The position numbers were made by a program, and so were the translations under genes. Below the pieces are notes generated by a model. It saw nothing but the letters and a program-made list of their open reading frames with translations. It had not been told where the DNA came from and ran no database searches. A stretch of 56,698 bases of DNA from a virus (lineage: Duplodnaviria; Caudoviricetes): the IMG/VR virus record IMGVR_UViG_3300048574_000080, positions 1-56,698 of that record; one strand, 5' to 3'. Each line of letters opens with the position of its first letter. Within the stretch, counting starts at the first letter, position 1. Shown one piece after another: positions 5,915 through 56,698 of the stretch.

Positions 5915-8362
5915 CTAAAATGGAATTGATTCGTCAATCGTCGCCGGGTGCTTCGGCATCACCGCCGCCGCCTTCTTTGCCTTGACCGCCGCTTTCTCCT
6001 CGCGCACCTCGGCAGGCGGCGCGATCAGCTTGGCCGACACCGGCGGCAACGTGCCGTAGAAGCTCTGCACCAATTCGATGCGGCTGCACAGGGCGGCCGG
6101 CGGTAAGCTGGGCAGCACCATGTTGCGCCCGTACATGCTCGCACGCACCCGGCTGTCCAGTACGGCCATCACGCCGGTGTCTGACGATGTGCGAATCAAG
6201 CGGCCCAGCGCCTGCTTTAGTTCGATGATCATGCGCGGCACTCTCAAGGCATTGAACGGGTACATCTCCAGCGTCTTGCCCGCCATGCCCGCCGCGCGGC
6301 CCTTGTCGAGTAGGTCGGCTTCCATGGCCTGCGTCAGCGGCGTGGGCGCCTCGAATGGCATCTTATCGACGACGACCAGGCGCAGCGCCGCACCGTCGAT
6401 GCTCACGCCCTCGAAAAAGCTCTTGGTCGCAAAGAGCACGGCATTGCCGTCACTGCGGAAGCGGCGGGCGATTTCGAGCTTCGGCATTTCGCCTTGCACC
6501 AGCACGGTCAGGCCGCGGGCGGCAAAGGTGCGGCCCAGTTCGGCGACCGCCTGGTTCATGGCGTTGTAACTGGTGAATAGCAGGAAAGCGCCGCCTCTGC
6601 TCGCCAGCACGAGCTGCCGCATTTCGTCGATCGCCCAGGCCAGCCAGCCGGAAGCGTTGGGCGCCGGCGCCGTGCCGCTGGGCAGGTAGAGCAGCGCATT
6701 GCCGGCATAGTCGAAGGGCGATGCTGCCTGCATCTGCAACGCATCGGGCAGCCCCGCCTGGCGCATGAAATGGGCCATGTCGGGGGCGGCGAGCGTGGCG
6801 CTACAGAAGATGGTAGCTTTGGCGCTGTAGGTCAGCAGCGGCGGCGCTTCGGTGCGGTCCAGTGCCAGCCAGTCGGATAGGTTGACCGTCTCCGCATCGC
6901 CCATCAAATCGACGTGATGAATGCAGTCGGGGCCGTAGGGTTTGCCGTCTAAGATGGCGACCTTCTCGGCGCTCAGCGTGCGGTGGCAGCGCTCGCAGCG
7001 GGTGTAATCCGGCTGCTGGGCGACCGGCACAGCATTGACGCCGGCGAGCTGGGCAATCCAGTGCGACACGTCGAACGGCTGGGCACAGAGCTTGGCGGGG
7101 TCGCCGTTGCGGCTCTGCTCAATCCAGCGCACATAGCCGTCGATCGTGGGGCCGGCCAGCATCGCCAGCTTGCCGGCCATGTTGCGGATGCGCTGCGCCT
7201 TGCGGGCAAGCTTCTTTTCGTCGGGGTCGCTGGGCAGTTCGTCCTCTGGCCATACGTCTTCGGCGATGCTCAGCAGAATCTCGCTTAGGTTTTGTGCGCC
7301 GTCGATCGTCTCATCGCGCTGGATCTGCACCTGGCTGTCGGTGGTGCGCGCTGTCTGCCGGCTGATGCTGCGTTCGACGGTCAGCAGTGCATCCATCGCA
7401 TCGCCGATGGCGTCCATGTCGGCATAGCCTTCGGCCAGGCTGATAGTGCGCTGCACCTGTGCGATGGTGAATTCAGCGCCGCGTGCGCCGCGCATGTAGT
7501 CGGGCAGCTTGTGCGCTTCGTCCACGACCACGACGTCACACGGCGGCAGGATGTGCCCTTCGGCTATCTGGTCGATGCACAGCAGGGCATGGTTGGTGAC
7601 CACGACGTCGGCGTTTTGCAGCGCCGCGCGCGCCTTGTAATAAAAGCAGGCGTCATAGAGCGGGCAGTGCTTGCCGGTGCACTCATCGTCGACCGTCAGC
7701 TTGGCAAGGTCTTTGTAGTTGACGGCAAAGTCGATTTCTTCGGTATTGCCGGTGGCGGTGCGCTGATACCAGTCGAACAGCTCATTGCCGCTGATGGCCT
7801 CGCCGTGCTCGCCACACTTGAAGCGGCACGCATAGTTGCCTTTGCCGACTGACACCGCCACTTTCTTGCCGGGCCAGATGCGCTGCAGGAACGGCAGGTC
7901 TTTCTCGACCAGCTGCATTTGCAATGCTTTATTCGATGTACTGATAATGACTTTCTTATTGAGGGCCATGCACACCGCGGCGTAGGCCAGGCTCTTGCCT
8001 GTTCCCGTCGCCGCTTCGACCACGGCCGGCTCGCGCATCTCAATGGCCCGCTGCACCAGCCGTGCCATGTGCAGCTGCGGCCGGCGCACTTCGTAGTTGG
8101 GCAGCAGCTGGGCGATGGCCCCGCCCTGTCCAAAGATGGCGTCGGCTACGGATGGCCAGCGGACGGTCAGCGTGTCGCCGTCGATCGTCTGCGGCGCTTC
8201 CGCCGGCACGCCTGCTGCCTGCACGATGGCGGCCCAGTTGCCCCGGTTGCCGTTGATGGTCAAGACAAAGTGGCCATCCTCGACGCGGGCGCTGGGGCGC
8301 TTGGGGGTGTCCTGGCAGGCGCTCTGCCAAAGACCTATCATCAGTGCTCTGAAGTCGTTCAT
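5915..8362 (-). CDS. DinG/YoaA-family ATP-dependent DNA helicase
   Basis: YEVRRPQ Q-motif, EAATGTGKS, Fe-S-type cysteines, DEAH, SATL, SFFEGVSI, QALGRLIR. Confidence 0.92.
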   Translation of the reverse strand: MNDFRALMIGLWQSACQDTPKRPSARVEDGHFVLTINGNRGNWAAIVQAAGVPAEAPQTIDGDTLTVRWPSVADAIFGQGGAIAQLLPNYEVRRPQLHMARLVQRAIEMREPAVVEAATGTGKSLAYAAVCMALNKKVIISTSNKALQMQLVEKDLPFLQRIWPGKKVAVSVGKGNYACRFKCGEHGEAISGNELFDWYQRTATGNTEEIDFAVNYKDLAKLTVDDECTGKHCPLYDACFYYKARAALQNADVVVTNHALLCIDQIAEGHILPPCDVVVVDEAHKLPDYMRGARGAEFTIAQVQRTISLAEGYADMDAIGDAMDALLTVERSISRQTARTTDSQVQIQRDETIDGAQNLSEILLSIAEDVWPEDELPSDPDEKKLARKAQRIRNMAGKLAMLAGPTIDGYVRWIEQSRNGDPAKLCAQPFDVSHWIAQLAGVNAVPVAQQPDYTRCERCHRTLSAEKVAILDGKPYGPDCIHHVDLMGDAETVNLSDWLALDRTEAPPLLTYSAKATIFCSATLAAPDMAHFMRQAGLPDALQMQAASPFDYAGNALLYLPSGTAPAPNASGWLAWAIDEMRQLVLASRGGAFLLFTSYNAMNQAVAELGRTFAARGLTVLVQGEMPKLEIARRFRSDGNAVLFATKSFFEGVSIDGAALRLVVVDKMPFEAPTPLTQAMEADLLDKGRAAGMAGKTLEMYPFNALRVPRMIIELKQALGRLIRTSSDTGVMAVLDSRVRASMYGRNMVLPSLPPAALCSRIELVQSFYGTLPPVSAKLIAPPAEVREEKAAVKAKKAAAVMPKHPATIDESIPF

Positions 8363-52173: not shown

Positions 52174-52552
52174 TGTCCGTCAGTTCTTGCACGCGCTGCA
52201 CGTATTCCAGCGGCCCGCCATCCTTGCCCGTTACTTCCTGTACGCGCTTGCCCCACCGGTCTGGGTAGCGCCGCTCTAGGTACCACGCATCAGCCTGCCA
52301 GTTGCCGGCCCTGCCGGCCCTGTTGATGCGGCTGACGCGCAGGGCTTCCGCTTCCGCCTCCGCCTTTTTTACTGCCTCAAGAAACTCAACATAGGCACCA
52401 GATGACGCCTGCTCGCCTTTCTTCATCCAGTTGTTGAGCGTAGTGTATGTAACCCCACCGATCGCCGCCGCCGTCTCCAGGTAGTTACCTTCGGCGATGG
52501 CGTCGACGATCTTCTTTTGCGTCTCAGGCGTTAGCTTGCTCTGGCGTGCCAT
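52121..52552 (-). CDS. terS: Terminase small subunit
   Basis: KLTPE..., WQADAWYLERRYP, TGKDGGP; directly upstream of terL. Confidence 0.8.
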   Translation of the reverse strand: MARQSKLTPETQKKIVDAIAEGNYLETAAAIGGVTYTTLNNWMKKGEQASSGAYVEFLEAVKKAEAEAEALRVSRINRAGRAGNWQADAWYLERRYPDRWGKRVQEVTGKDGGPLEYVQRVQELTDSELERIILSRSGARAAE

Positions 52553-53102
52553 CGCAATCGCCCTCCTGCAGCCAGGGGTACAACTTCAGTTCGTAGGCAA
52601 TGGCGACCAGGTCGCGCAGCAATGCGTGCAATTCGTCCGCTAGCGGCTGGTACTTTGCCTTCTTCCTCGGTGGCGGCTTCGACACGATTTCGAGAAGTTG
52701 CAGCCAACGCTCGTACGGCAACTGATAGGTGCGATAGGTGTCGAATCGATGCTCTACGTCGTTGTGGATACGGTTGACAAGCCGATGACCTTCAGCCTTC
52801 AGTTTGTCGATCCATCGTCGTTCGGCTTCAAATCTGTTTGCCGCCGTTGTCACTTCGAGCGTGTCGCAGACGATGTTGTCGGCTCCGTACTTCTTGACTG
52901 TGTTGGCGAAGTGAGTATTTGAGTGTGTGCCGCTTTCCACGGCATAGAGGTGGGCGGCGAGACGGTGTTCTGACAGATACTTGGAGCATCCAACATAGAA
53001 GTAGCGATCCGAATCGGTGTGCCGCAAGCCGTAGACGTACCCTGCACCCGCCAGGGCCATGACCTGCGCCTTGATTTCGTCGCTGTACTCCCGCCGCACC
53101 AT
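52524..53102 (-). CDS. GIY-YIG endonuclease
   Basis: GYVYGL...FYVGCS...RLAAH...EAERRWI...LVN. Confidence 0.8.
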   Translation of the reverse strand: MVRREYSDEIKAQVMALAGAGYVYGLRHTDSDRYFYVGCSKYLSEHRLAAHLYAVESGTHSNTHFANTVKKYGADNIVCDTLEVTTAANRFEAERRWIDKLKAEGHRLVNRIHNDVEHRFDTYRTYQLPYERWLQLLEIVSKPPPRKKAKYQPLADELHALLRDLVAIAYELKLYPWLQEGDCDGTPEQANA

Positions 53103-53647: not shown

Positions 53648-54766
53648 CTACTGATGTGTAAATTCAGCCCAGCCCAGGTTCTTGCCTGCACTGGCCCCAC
53701 TGGGCACCGGATAGGATGTGCCATACAACGCATTGATCACGGCAGGCTGCCAGCTGTCGTCGCCGCTCGGCGGCCACTTGGCGACATCATAGGCCCACTT
53801 GACGGAGCGCAGGTGCGCCTGGTCGCACCAGGACTTGGCAGGCAGGCCTGCGTTTTCTAGCACCTGGATCGTTGCCGTGATGCCCTGTTCCGCCTCCCAG
53901 TAGTAGTCCGTCTTGCCCGGTGGCCACGTAAAGCCCCCGGCCCGGCGCAGCTCCTCGGGCAGGGAACCATCGACGGGATGGCCTTGGATGGTAGCACCCT
54001 TGGGATTGATGCCAACGGGGTGCGCGGGGTCGCTCTGCCAGTCGAGTTCGCCATAGGTAAAGCCGCTGTAGGCGGCCCGATCACCCAGGAAGCCTTTGAA
54101 CACCTGGACGGCGCGGGCCAGCTCGGCATCGTCGCCGATGTAGCGGGCGATCATCACGCGGGCGCAGCTGGCGTGCGTGCCCCAGTTGTTGGGCCGCTGC
54201 TCTTGCGATTTGACCAACGATGCGGGACCGCCGCCCGATGTGGGACAGGTCAGGAAGTAGCGCAGCTTGTCGCTGAAAGCGGCGTCCAGGTCAGGATCAA
54301 CCATCCACAGTTCGATGCCTTCGGCGGCGGCGATGTAGCCGGGCACTTCACGCGCGAGAGCCAGCGCACGGCCGATCTTGAGTGAAGGGCTGACGATGGC
54401 GCGCAGGCCGGCGAGGACACGATTCAGGAAGAAGGTATCTCCAGTGCAGGCGTAGACGTAGGCGTTGGCCTGCATGTTGGTGTTGTGCTTGGAGTCCTGA
54501 TTCTCTACGCTGGGCGTGCCGGGGTCCGCCTTCGCAGCTTTGAACATGGCTTCCCAGGCGGGGCCGCTCTGCGTCTTCTTGCGCAGCGCCTCCACGTCCA
54601 CCCAGATGCAACCGGCCGGCACAGGCTCAGGGTCGGGATCTGGAGGAGGCGGCGGTGGGGGTGGAGGTGGTGGCGGGTCCGTCACCGTGACGATCTCCAG
54701 CGGGTCGCCCAACTCGGACGCAATGACGATCTTCCCATCGATACTGGTTACTGTAACCTTGGTCAT
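53648..54766 (-). CDS. Alginate-lyase-like protein, copy 2
   Basis: Poly-Pro linker; RALALARE, RPNNWGTHA, PEELRR. Confidence 0.55.
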   Translation of the reverse strand: MTKVTVTSIDGKIVIASELGDPLEIVTVTDPPPPPPPPPPPPDPDPEPVPAGCIWVDVEALRKKTQSGPAWEAMFKAAKADPGTPSVENQDSKHNTNMQANAYVYACTGDTFFLNRVLAGLRAIVSPSLKIGRALALAREVPGYIAAAEGIELWMVDPDLDAAFSDKLRYFLTCPTSGGGPASLVKSQEQRPNNWGTHASCARVMIARYIGDDAELARAVQVFKGFLGDRAAYSGFTYGELDWQSDPAHPVGINPKGATIQGHPVDGSLPEELRRAGGFTWPPGKTDYYWEAEQGITATIQVLENAGLPAKSWCDQAHLRSVKWAYDVAKWPPSGDDSWQPAVINALYGTSYPVPSGASAGKNLGWAEFTHQ

Positions 54767-54803
54767 CTTGTTGTCTCCTGGTAAGGCTTACGTGTATCCG
54801 TTG

Positions 54804-55019
54804 TCACCTGTTGCGCCGTCTCGACTGCGCGGCCATCCTACGGCGCTGTTTGGACTGGCCGCGATTGTGGTTCTTGGTGATGCCTGCGCGGGTATGGGTC
54901 TTTGGGGTGAGAGGTTCGGCGACGTCTATGTCCGTCTTGCCGGCGGTGAGGGTCTGCCCTTCGATGGTCTGCGCCAGTGAAACCGGTGAAGTGGCGGCGG
55001 CAAGTTGTTGTTCCTGCAT
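54804..55019 (-). CDS. Small basic hypothetical protein
   Basis: GGGAG upstream; RRRMAAQSRRRNR tail. Confidence 0.5.
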   Translation of the reverse strand: MQEQQLAAATSPVSLAQTIEGQTLTAGKTDIDVAEPLTPKTHTRAGITKNHNRGQSKQRRRMAAQSRRRNR

Positions 55020-55126
55020 GGATGATGCATCTCCCGATACTATCTAACACTTACAAAAATACTTATGTTCAATCGTATCACTGTGAGTGAATAAACTCAA
55101 TCCCCTACTTAGTAGCTGTGTTGTGT

Positions 55127-55166
55127 AAGAAAAAGAAAACCGAGAGCATCGCGCTCCCGGTTTCTT
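55127..55166 (-). terminator. Rho-independent terminator closing the pentamer-array transcript
   Basis: AAGAAACCGGGAGC-GCGAT-GCTCTCGGTTTTCTT-TTTCTT. Confidence 0.85.
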
Positions 55167-55170
55167 ACTG

Positions 55171-55258
55171 CCCTCGCCTAGCCGTGCCACACCAAGCCAA
55201 GCCTGGCCTCGCCACGCATTGCCAAGCCGTGCCGAGCCTAGCCTAGCCATGCACAGCC
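55171..55258 (-). ncRNA. GGY-NN pentamer array 3 (17 units), candidate guide RNA
   Basis: Strict 5-nt phase; constant GGC (GGT/TGC variants); ends GGG-CA. Confidence 0.75.
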
Positions 55259-55260
55259 AA

Positions 55261-55304
55261 TCGTGGTGGGCGGAGTCGAACCGCCCCACAGACCATCGCC
55301 ACGA
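55261..55304 (-). ncRNA. tRNA-like minihelix spacer 2
   Basis: TCGTGG/CCACGA closing stem, ATGGT linker, GGGCGG-TTCGACT-CCGCCC T-arm. Confidence 0.7.
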
Positions 55305-55309
55305 AACTA

Positions 55310-55407
55310 CCCTTGCAATGCCTTGCCAAGCCCTGCCGAGCCCAGCCACGCCGCACCCAGCCGGGCCGAGCCCCGACTCGCCCTGCCGTGCCCCGACTTG
55401 CCCTGCC
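55310..55407 (-). ncRNA. GGY-NN pentamer array 2 (19 units), candidate guide RNA
   Basis: Strict 5-nt phase; GGC (GGT/GTC/TGC variants); ends AA-GGG-TA. Confidence 0.75.
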
Positions 55408-55409
55408 AA

Positions 55410-55454
55410 AACGGCGGGCGGGAATCGAACCCACCCAATGCACCATGCGCCGTT
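55410..55454 (-). ncRNA. tRNA-like minihelix spacer 1
   Basis: AACGGC/GCCGTT closing stem, ATGGT linker, GGGTGGG-TTCGATT-CCCGCCC T-arm. Confidence 0.7.
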
Positions 55455-55460
55455 GTGGTA

Positions 55461-55543
55461 CCCTTGCCTTGCCTTGCCGGGCCCAGCCAGGCCGCTCCCG
55501 GCCTCGCCTTGCCTTGCCCCGCCACGCTCTGCCTGGCCGCGCC
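55461..55543 (-). ncRNA. GGY-NN pentamer array 1 (16 units), candidate guide RNA
   Basis: Begins 1 nt after the RAMP-like stop codon; strict 5-nt phase; ends AA-GGG-TA. Confidence 0.75.
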
Positions 55544-55544
55544 G

Positions 55545-56099
55545 CTAAATATCGAAACCAGACAACTGGTACCGACCATACATGGGGCGAAACGTGCCTA
55601 GCCCCAACGTGCCGCCCATGTCGAATGCCTGCCGCAAGTTCTCCAGTGTGCAGAACTTGTTTTCGATATACTCGACAGTGAAGTCAAGCCGCCAAGGGAG
55701 CGCCAGAACCGGACGCTCCTTTGGGTTAGGGATACCGCCCTTGACGCGGGCGACATGCTTGGCTTGGCTGATCTGCCCGTTCCAGCCAGTGAAACGGATC
55801 GGGCCGCTGTCGTCACGAATGGGAATATCGAACGGGTCGATCGCCGTGTAGCTGCTAATCCCCAAGGCGATCGTCTTGCCGTTCCTCCCGAAGAACTGGC
55901 GGCACACTGACTTGGTGTTCTCCGCTACGAGCAACGAAAGAATATTTAGGGCGGGCATCATGAGCGCCCCATCCTTGCCGAGATACATCTTCTCCGCTAC
56001 GGGCAACTGTGTGTTGTTGTCGCCCGCGTACCGGTCGAACATCAAAGGGCGAAGCCCCTCCAACCGCACCGTAATAATCGTTTTGTCCTGCATTGCCAT
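55545..56099 (-). CDS. Stand-alone RAMP/Cas7-like protein (184 aa)
   Basis: AAGGAG RBS; ITVRLEGLRPLMF, YLGKDGALMMPALNI, ERPVLALPWRLDFTVEY, C-terminal Gly-rich loop GGTLGLGTFRPMYGRY. Confidence 0.75.
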   Translation of the reverse strand: MAMQDKTIITVRLEGLRPLMFDRYAGDNNTQLPVAEKMYLGKDGALMMPALNILSLLVAENTKSVCRQFFGRNGKTIALGISSYTAIDPFDIPIRDDSGPIRFTGWNGQISQAKHVARVKGGIPNPKERPVLALPWRLDFTVEYIENKFCTLENLRQAFDMGGTLGLGTFRPMYGRYQLSGFDI

Positions 56100-56343
56100 T
56101 GTCAAACTCCTTTGCCTTGTCAGGCGGAATCTCGAACCACTCAGCGCCGCCATCCGTCCTATACTGCCAGTATCGGCGGTGTAAGTCGGCTTCTGTCGCT
56201 TCGTTGCCCTCGACTGTCGCAACCACCTCAAGCCGACGCGGGCAGGCTGTTTGTAATTCAGCCAGCCGCCAAAGAACATCCTCCCGCGAGGTGTAGCCTA
56301 TCTTGTAATAGTCTGTCCCTGCCATCCTCAAGAAGTAGACCAT
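55855..56343 (-). CDS. T5orf172/MUG113-type GIY-YIG-like protein
   Basis: VYFL...YKIGYT...RLAELQTACP...EADLH...EWFEI; GAGG RBS; C-terminal half overlaps the RAMP-like gene. Confidence 0.8.
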   Translation of the reverse strand: MVYFLRMAGTDYYKIGYTSREDVLWRLAELQTACPRRLEVVATVEGNEATEADLHRRYWQYRTDGGAEWFEIPPDKAKEFDNGNAGQNDYYGAVGGASPFDVRPVRGRQQHTVARSGEDVSRQGWGAHDARPKYSFVARSGEHQVSVPPVLREERQDDRLGD

Positions 56344-56358
56344 GCCTCACCAATGCGC

Positions 56359-56482
56359 AAAACCCACCCAGTAACCTCGTTTGGTTGCGACACGCAAACG
56401 GGACGGCTTACGCCGGGTTACTGGGTGGGTTTTAGGTCCAAACTAGGCAATCAAAAAGCCGCCCTATCGTTTACGTGTCGCA
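56359..56482 (-). ncRNA. C4-antisense-like structured leader with upstream complementary sites
   Basis: 18-bp perfect stem enclosing two hairpins; internal CGTGTCGCA and AAGCCGTCC pair with 5' TGCGACACG and GGGCGGCTT. Confidence 0.6.
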
Positions 56483-56487
56483 TCTGT

Positions 56488-56530
56488 AGTATACAACATG
56501 AGGTGATATTTTTCAACTTAAATATCACTT
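56488..56530 (-). promoter_or_regulatory. Sigma70-type promoter with overlapping operator-like inverted repeat
   Basis: TTGAAA-17 nt-TATACT; AGGTGATATT-N10-AATATCACTT straddles the -35 box. Confidence 0.75.
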
Positions 56531-56559
56531 ATGGTGAAGTTTTTGTGCACCGGGAACGC

Positions 56560-56685
56560 GAAGAGGGGAAGCTTTCGCCTCCCCTCTTTCGCCACTTTCG
56601 CCTTACGCCTATGAAACCGGACTGCGCCGTACCCGATCAGTTGGGACTCGGTGCGTCCACGTATCGATCTACTTCAACCCAGCCC
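56560..56685. repeat. Terminal direct repeat, right copy
   Basis: Identical to 1-126. Confidence 0.95.
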
Positions 56686-56698
56686 CCCCCCCCCCGGG

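Follow-up and report, generated by a model that had tools for sequence, protein, structure and literature searches.

At the right end of the 56,698-nucleotide stretch of DNA analysed here (hereafter the window, which is the IMG/VR virus record IMGVR_UViG_3300048574_000080 from position 1 to 56,698) lies a minus-strand operon (55127-56343) that very probably constitutes a phage-encoded VIPR (Viral Interference Programmable Repeat) system, in which one predicted transcript carries an accessory gene, vipr itself and three arrays of guides. The locus encodes a homolog of Vipr with a RAMP fold, its arrays adjoin the gene and combine conserved GGY positions with hypervariable NN dinucleotides, and it is a viral locus free of cas genes; with these features it is a member of VIPR. 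Since VIPR has been in print since April 2026 (10.64898/2026.04.26.720920), the core finding is not new. The variant features of this locus are the tRNA-like punctuation of the guide array and an overlapping MUG113 partner gene, and we tentatively suggest that the phage clade to which it belongs might mature its guides by tRNA mimicry, with half-tRNA "fences" cut by host RNase P and RNase Z, and with a GIY-YIG-like accessory frame held open inside vipr. VIPR is a very recent subject, in which bench work is confined to two clades (SUSP1 and Pseudomonas fulva), and the clade of the present locus, which is large, distant from those two and not yet characterised, is common in wastewater and activated-sludge metagenomes.

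In the VIPR systems described to date, one Vipr protomer binds each GGY/NN repeat of the guide, NN pairs to DNA with one skipped base, and rival phages and satellites are silenced (10.64898/2026.04.26.720920; 10.64898/2026.04.26.720927). The published scheme recognises seven VIPR types and six vap genes, and its kinds of array include pseudoknot-tailed, staggered, hammerhead-interspersed and single guides (10.64898/2026.04.26.720920). It asks for at least four tandem GGY/NN (YNNGG) units adjoining vipr on the strand of that gene, and it tolerates internal degeneracy of the guides, or vrRNAs (10.64898/2026.04.26.720920). The arrays of Escherichia phage SUSP1 are reported to be transcribed and bound by Vipr (10.64898/2026.04.26.720920).

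The vipr open reading frame (ORF) of the window, whose coordinates are given with those of the other features in Table 1, has a ribosome-binding site (AGGAG) 7 nt upstream of its ATG and ends in ...GLGTFRPMYGRYQLSGFDI before a TAG stop; it is the 184-aa ORF of the original prediction, which had been made from the letters of the window without database searches, and it was recovered at the same place and with the same C-terminus. A Pfam scan of the protein gave no match, and PHROGs returned only phrog_4652, a family of unknown function (E 3.1e-8). When the single sequence was compared with PDB sequences, the sole match was the SUSP1 Vipr chain 36pp_D at E 0.49, and a profile built from 82 family members retrieved the same chain by hmmsearch at E 1.9e-10 (44 bits; next match E 0.33), with an alignment that spans residues 80-190 of 36pp_D. 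The resemblance to VIPR-type viral systems that the original prediction had named is thereby confirmed against a solved member of a published system. The family itself is large, comprising 1252 proteins at E ≤0.001 among 1296 candidates from a collection clustered at 90%; at 50% identity there are 249 clusters.

The AlphaFold2 (AF2) model of Vipr (pLDDT 97.4, pTM 0.90) has the parts of a minimal RAMP: a single RRM core together with a thumb and a loop rich in glycine. In a Foldseek search of this model against a PDB copy that reaches 8 April 2026, all listed rows were type III/VII CRISPR effector complexes (Csm, Cmr and type VII; prob 1.00), with no Vipr chain among the matches listed, and the best of them were Cmr4, Csm3 and Cas7 RAMPs at E 5e-6 to 1e-4, TM 0.5-0.6 and 12-15% identity, as would be expected from the RAMP/Cas7-like layout that the original prediction had noticed. 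From the alignment to SUSP1, we read residues 162-176 (GGTLGLGTFRPMYGR) as a candidate loop rich in glycine (G-loop) and the beta-hairpin at 110-132, which bears the invariant R129, as a candidate thumb. In SUSP1, R138, W178 and R179 hold the second G and the Y of the repeat (10.64898/2026.04.26.720927); they align to R129, F170 and R171 here, and R129, R171 and G175 are invariant across the family.

The Cas7-family RAMPs of type III and type VII systems (Csm3, Cmr4 and Cas7) share with Vipr the Gly-rich loop before the last strand and are its best structural matches. They differ from it in sequence, with an identity as low as that given above, and in setting, as the locus lacks a CRISPR array and Cas10, Cas5, Cas6 and Cas1; furthermore, the period is 5 nt here and 6 nt in the Cas7-family RAMPs, and the guide consists of repeats only. 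PADLOC, run on the 62 ORFs of the window, identified no cas1, cas3, cas5, cas6 or cas7, and an Rfam search of 54900-56698 with E values up to 10 returned no CRISPR repeat family at threshold, which agrees with the original prediction that cas genes and a CRISPR array are absent.

The first array (A1) starts 1 nt past the vipr stop codon and, without their closing units, the three unit tracts occupy 55543-55464 (A1), 55407-55313 (A2) and 55258-55174 (A3). These are the 16, 19 and 17 phased units that had been claimed, and they lie beside vipr on its own strand, in numbers well above the four tandem units of the published scheme. GGY is found in 45 of the 52 units (43 GGC and 2 GGT), and the remaining seven read TGC (three units), GTC (two), AGC (one) and GGA (one); the departures from GGC are exactly those listed in the original prediction, and the closing units (GGGTA, GGGTA and GGGCA) and the terminator that follows, here a terminator-like hairpin with a T run, also agree with it. 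Positions 1-3 of the units have an entropy of 0.24-0.45 bits, compared with 1.91-1.97 bits for positions 4-5, and none of the 16 possible NN dinucleotides is missing. Across both strands of the 56.7-kb window, these three tracts are the only ones with at least 8 of 10 phased units as GGY; the maximum observed is 10 of 10, compared with a mean of 3.5 and a highest value of 7 in 1000 mononucleotide shuffles of the 418-nt region.

The same arrangement is widespread in relatives. We compared 103 homologue loci, of which IMG/VR supplied 82, metagenomes 6 and genomes 15, calling an array where at least 7 of 8 phased units were GGY, and found at least one array on the vipr strand in 83 of them (183 arrays) and on the opposite strand in none; the other 20 loci showed no such run and may carry other repeat forms or sit on cut contigs. 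In the 83 loci GGY is kept and NN differs, which is the outcome of a check that the original prediction had proposed. The guides also appear to turn over faster than the gene: relative to the homologue locus L083, the vipr DNA is 88% identical and array 1 only 65%. In an activated-sludge (wastewater) DNA contig of a related strain, exactly one 5-nt unit is missing at 55187 in array 3, and 62 nt of array 2 (55343-55404) are swapped for 157 other letters. A conserved GGC-(A/G)A-GG motif, such as GGCAAGGCAA or GGCAAGGGTA, closes the arrays of the window and of most of the 83 loci that bear arrays, so that one or two NN at the end of an array seem to be fixed and not programmable.

Type II VIPR, as described for SUSP1 and for a Pseudomonas fulva prophage (10.64898/2026.04.26.720920; 10.64898/2026.04.26.720927; 10.64898/2026.10.15.759431), has the same single-RRM RAMP with G-loop and thumb, the same tandem same-strand GGY-NN guides beside the gene with several in a row downstream, and the same two-gene phage operon with neither cas genes nor a CRISPR array. 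The window differs in that its Vipr is distant enough from that of SUSP1 to need the family profile, and in its guides of 16-19 units, compared with the 9-16 reported for type II. In addition, the guide is followed here by a tRNA-like minihelix or a terminator and in SUSP1 by a conserved pseudoknot tail, and the partner gene, MUG113/T5orf172 here and vap1 in the SUSP1 clade, may differ as well; tail and vap1 were considered by their published descriptions. A single transcript would span the operon between the promoter-like site (56516) and the terminator (55127). If the homology with SUSP1 extends to function, one Vipr protomer would bind each pentamer, building a filament in which GGY is sequestered between G-loop and thumb and NN is exposed. 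With its 16-19 NN pairs, each guide would read double-stranded DNA while passing over every third base, and a rival mobile element bound in this way would be silenced. The GGY binding, the ribonucleoprotein (RNP) and the targeting that the original prediction had proposed for this locus are inferred from the same homology.

The two spacers that separate the arrays appear to be more than connecting sequence. Element 1 (a 45-nt spacer) folds into a 7-bp acceptor-like stem, a 12-nt linker and a 6-bp T-stem with the loop TTCGATT, and element 2 (44 nt) into an acceptor-like stem of 6 bp plus a C.A mismatch, an 11-nt linker and a 6-bp T-stem with the loop TTCGACT. In both, the 3' strand of the T-stem continues straight into the 3' strand of the acceptor, giving a 13-bp stack. 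The general architecture, with a 7-position acceptor-like stem, a linker of 10-13 nt, a G-C-closed stem of 5-6 bp and a UUCGAnn or UUCAAnn loop, is common to eleven elements in five loci, namely the window (two) and the homologue loci L001 (four), L083 (two), L084 (one) and L087 (two), whose Vipr proteins are 75, 92, 80 and 78% identical to that of the window, respectively. It is thus an acceptor stacked on a G-C-closed T-stem with a 7-nt UUCRAnn loop and compensatory changes, that is, an acceptor/T-arm minihelix; a full cloverleaf with an anticodon arm is absent, the 10-13-nt linker being found where a tRNA has its D arm and anticodon arm.

Covariation argues for this fold. Of the 143 stack cells in the eleven elements, 140 hold a standard pair, compared with 37-70 when the 3' strand is slid by 1-2 bases as a control, and 8 of the 13 positions have changed on both sides; the paired fraction is inflated because the structure was derived from the same sequences, and the both-side changes are independent of that. 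In a MAFFT alignment of nine elements, 97.4% of cells are paired and six pairs show changes on both sides, and the covariation score of 0.455 (0.218 in shuffled alignments) was reached by none of 500 shuffles. A minihelix detector that calls stacks of at least 12 bp was applied to 502,378 bases and gave 12 matches, all of them on the strand of vipr, compared with one match in shuffled loci; one of the 12, in L025, does not adjoin an array. The covariance model R1, built from nine elements with element 2 in the training set, scores this training-set member at 54.1 bits, and a model built without the L087 element finds that element at 30 bits (E 5e-4). A loose contig end in run X12 carries a variant of element 2 in which the T-stem has changed on both strands. 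The elements are placed only between arrays, with element-to-array counts of 2:3 in the window, 4:5 in L001, 1:2 in L084 and 2:3 in L087, and in each of these four loci no element follows the last array, which is bounded by a terminator or by the neighbouring gene. The more distant L068 (of which L071 is a duplicate) has an 11-bp variant of the element after its single array.

RNase P and RNase Z accept acceptor/T-arm minihelices as minimal substrates, and tRNA-punctuated processing is familiar from mitochondrial transcripts, the MALAT1 mascRNA, herpesvirus tRNA-miRNA units and engineered polycistronic tRNA-gRNA arrays. All of these place a tRNA or tRNA-like fold between functional RNAs, which are freed by RNase P and RNase Z; they use full cloverleaves or near-full mimics, whereas the phage guide array has an acceptor/T-arm half with a 10-13-nt linker. 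By analogy, we lean somewhat towards the view that host tRNA-maturation nucleases cut at the elements. Host RNase P would cut on the 5' side and RNase Z, or an equivalent, on the 3' side, and three guides of ~85-100 nt would therefore be released from a precursor shared by mRNA and guides. The elements would then have the role of the hammerhead ribozymes in ribozyme-interspersed VIPR arrays (types I and V; fig. S19 legend, 10.64898/2026.04.26.720920), in which a structured RNA module likewise separates the guides of one transcript. The hammerhead module cleaves itself, whereas the module here has no ribozyme match and looks like a putative substrate of host tRNA processing; specifically, no ribozyme family was found between the guides in the Rfam search of 54900-56698 with E values up to 10.

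If RNase P and RNase Z do cut the elements, the guides would mature without a phage-encoded nuclease or ribozyme. Nature would then have its own version of engineered tRNA-gRNA arrays, and Cas6-type nucleases and self-cleaving ribozymes would be joined by a third processing route; this would be relevant to the first processing of guide arrays, at a time without Cas6-like enzymes, and would offer compact, host-independent multiplexing of VIPR guides for engineering. Otherwise, the locus is one more VIPR member. The main texts of three VIPR papers (10.64898/2026.04.26.720920; 10.64898/2026.04.26.720927; 10.64898/2026.10.15.759431) contain no mention of tRNA (tRNA-like included), RNase P or RNase Z, although the supplements may still show them, and "tRNA-like" is likewise not mentioned in the available text of 10.64898/2026.10.21.760802.

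Several observations weigh against processing by tRNA mimicry. R1 misses element 1, even with filters off, and Rfam matches at the two window elements lie far below threshold (tRNA-Sec with 16.7 bits and E 5.4 at element 1; the tRNA-like part of cyano_tmRNA with 11.2 bits at element 2). Rfam returned no match, at E values up to 10, at the elements of L001, L083, L084 and L087, and ARAGORN predicted no tRNA gene in the window. Among close relatives, L002/L086 and L088 have no elements. It is also worth noting that the 3' pseudoknot of SUSP1 stays on the guide as a cap (10.64898/2026.04.26.720927), and the elements could therefore be caps and not cut sites.

This last point leads to a rival account within the same VIPR system, which we regard as rather unlikely: the tRNA-like elements might stay on the guides as a 3' cap, the counterpart of the SUSP1 pseudoknot, protecting the 3' end or setting the stop of the Vipr filament, with guide ends made by other nucleases or by exonuclease trimming as far as the RNP. 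A stable structure does follow every array in the window (element 1, element 2 or the terminator hairpin), the single array of L068/L071 is followed by a similar element, and T-loop hairpins are general structural modules. However, the last array lacks an element in all four loci with a complete array set, and an element is therefore not required on every guide; moreover, the 13-bp stack, the G-C closing pair and the UUCRAnn loop exceed what a cap would need and are features that RNase P and RNase Z recognise. Neither point is decisive, and it is with this proviso that we prefer cutting by host tRNA-maturation nucleases to retention as caps.

True tRNA genes also occur near arrays in some relatives. 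With ARAGORN, run on 60 of 88 loci, a tRNA-Gly(tcc) was found in L059 (3160-3231), starting 24 nt past the vrRNA array, and tRNA-Met genes lie 270-840 nt downstream of the arrays in L050, L057 and L080, with a further tRNA-Gly ~2 kb downstream in L050. This proximity is possibly a coincidence.

The original prediction had called the RAMP-like protein a lone one, and in this respect it did not hold, as a MUG113/T5orf172 gene (Pfam PF13455, E 5.4e-15; PF10544, E 1.3e-7) lies directly upstream of vipr and overlaps it, its ORF continuing 245 nt into vipr in another frame (55855-56099, minus strand). The same domain is encoded upstream in 8 of 72 related loci scanned (L001, L002, L003, L005, L018, L083, L084 and L088), all of them closer relatives with 42-92% identity. 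In all nine loci, the accessory frame is open for 161-266 nt inside vipr in the same register, and the other alternative frame stops within 55 nt. When the codons of vipr were shuffled synonymously, the length of the overlap was matched in 0-15 of 2000 shuffles in five loci of lower GC and in 115-280 of 2000 in four GC-rich loci, which include the window. The open frame hints that there may be an overlapping coding region or coupled translation. A scan of 13 longer family representatives for a fusion of MUG113 with Vipr revealed none with a MUG113 domain.

Invariant residues of the accessory protein are Y3, K14, G16, T18, R26, E51, H55, E68, W69 and F70. Foldseek gave no match for it at E ≤0.001, and structural comparison with VIA-align gave weak matches (all Z <5) to Slx1 (4.2), HIGLE (3.9), I-TevI (3.6) and UvrC (3.1). 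We take the MUG113 and T5orf172 Pfam domains to belong to the GIY-YIG clan, and the accessory protein is probably a DNA-acting partner that is weakly GIY-YIG-like.

Whether the system still acts was approached through its targets and its expression, and here a second group of observations speaks against our interpretation. The three guides were turned into patterns with a 1-nt skip. In the window itself, the best NN matches (20 of 34, 22 of 40 and 22 of 36) were at the level of shuffled sequence; published VIPR guides likewise have no self match (10.64898/2026.04.26.720920). In IMG/VR, exact seeds of units 1-10 gave no match for any guide, and exact seeds of units 5-12 gave 7, 6 and 23 matches, which at full length reached at most 23 of 34, 23 of 40 and 26 of 36 and were near chance outside the seed; the best NN match, 72%, is below the 80% cut used in the papers. 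None of the guides matched, at up to three mismatches, in 401 genomes from the order of the Rhodoferax metagenome-assembled genome that carries a relative of 46% identity, and no target match was found in three genomes with relatives. In the RNA-labelled runs X12 and X17 there are contigs from parts of the locus; these may be DNA carry-over and show no ends, and the raw reads of run X21 include none on the locus. In the protein, SUSP1 D177, which is required for silencing (10.64898/2026.04.26.720927), corresponds to T169.

A decaying or orphaned locus, with its parts still recognisable and the system no longer acting, would account for the absence of a target with at least 80% NN match in the searches made, for the seven units that depart from GGY and for T169. 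We nevertheless consider it highly improbable. The ORF is intact and keeps the residues that are invariant in the family, and threonine is the family consensus at that G-loop position (GLGTFRP). The locus has kept a terminator, a ribosome-binding site and a promoter-like site, and near-identical loci, with guide turnover, occur in runs of nine wastewater and sludge studies. The published criteria allow internal degeneracy of vrRNAs, as noted above, and the target searches are narrow, being limited to exact seeds and one bacterial order. That the pentamer tracts are a DNA-level or protein-coding repeat that merely sits beside a RAMP-like gene, and not guide RNAs of a VIPR system, is scarcely credible: long ORFs do cross the tracts on both strands, as expected at 63% G+C, but no periodic protein can be encoded with a period of 5 nt, the tracts are locked to the vipr strand in 83 of 103 loci and found on the other strand in none, they fill the stretch between the terminator and a point 1 nt past the stop codon, and the homologous SUSP1 arrays are transcribed and Vipr-bound (10.64898/2026.04.26.720920).

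In 5' to 3' order along the minus strand, the locus consists of a promoter-like site, a hairpin leader, the MUG113/T5orf172 gene, vipr, A1, a spacer, A2, a spacer, A3 and the terminator (Table 1). The promoter-like site is the sole such match in 54700-56698, and because shuffles of the region average 1.0 match it is to be taken as a consensus match only. The 171-nt leader folds at -66.4 kcal/mol (z -3.8), with none of 200 shuffles as stable, and its hairpin is near-perfect. Upstream of the operon, L001 (2410-2496) and L083 (106-208) likewise have long palindromes, which give spurious miRNA-like Rfam matches.

Table 1. Features of the VIPR locus, in window coordinates and in order of transcription.
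Feature	Position	Strand	Basis or remark
Sigma-70-like promoter, TTGAAA-17 nt-TATACT (putative)	56488..56516	-	10/12 consensus positions
Long hairpin in 5' leader	56358..56439	-	between promoter-like site and first gene
Accessory gene, candidate vap	55855..56343	-	MUG113/T5orf172 domain, aa 2-79
vipr gene, 184 aa, minimal RAMP (stop codon included)	55545..56099	-	family profile, AF2, Foldseek
vrRNA array 1 (A1), 16 GGY-NN units + closing GGGTA	55459..55543	-	phased-pentamer scan
tRNA-like element 1	55410..55454	-	minimum-energy fold
vrRNA array 2 (A2), 19 units + closing GGGTA	55308..55407	-	phased-pentamer scan
tRNA-like element 2	55261..55304	-	fold, covariation, R1 score
vrRNA array 3 (A3), 17 units + closing GGGCA	55169..55258	-	phased-pentamer scan
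Intrinsic terminator-like hairpin + T run	55127..55164	-	13 pairs, then CTTTTTCTT; z -4.1

The record is linear, ~55% complete and that of a tailed phage, with genes for terminase subunits, head morphogenesis (portal-like), a protease, the major tail protein, a tape-measure protein, helicases, a primase and RusA. Its terL is at most 44% identical to those of phages of many hosts. The sole GenBank phage with a relative is Burkholderia phage vB_E436 (40.7% identity), and relatives at 35-47% identity are present in genomes of Rhodoferax, Paraburkholderia, Methylobacter, Planctomycetota and others. DNA near-identical to the locus was found in wastewater and activated-sludge runs from nine studies.

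The sole CRISPR-linked PADLOC match in the window lies 47 kb from the VIPR locus and is a DinG/Csf4-like helicase of 815 aa in the replication module (5918-8362, minus strand), which matches type IV-A CRISPR-associated DinG (Csf4) at E 2.2e-105 and is a DNA helicase according to PHROGs. At the end of the record (56680-56698), a run of 12 C is followed by GGG, which is probably an artefact of the assembly or the contig end. Between the VIPR locus and terS, a 192-aa ORF (52524-53102, minus strand) matches homing endonucleases (PHROG 314, E 1e-9; PADLOC HEase, E 1e-6).

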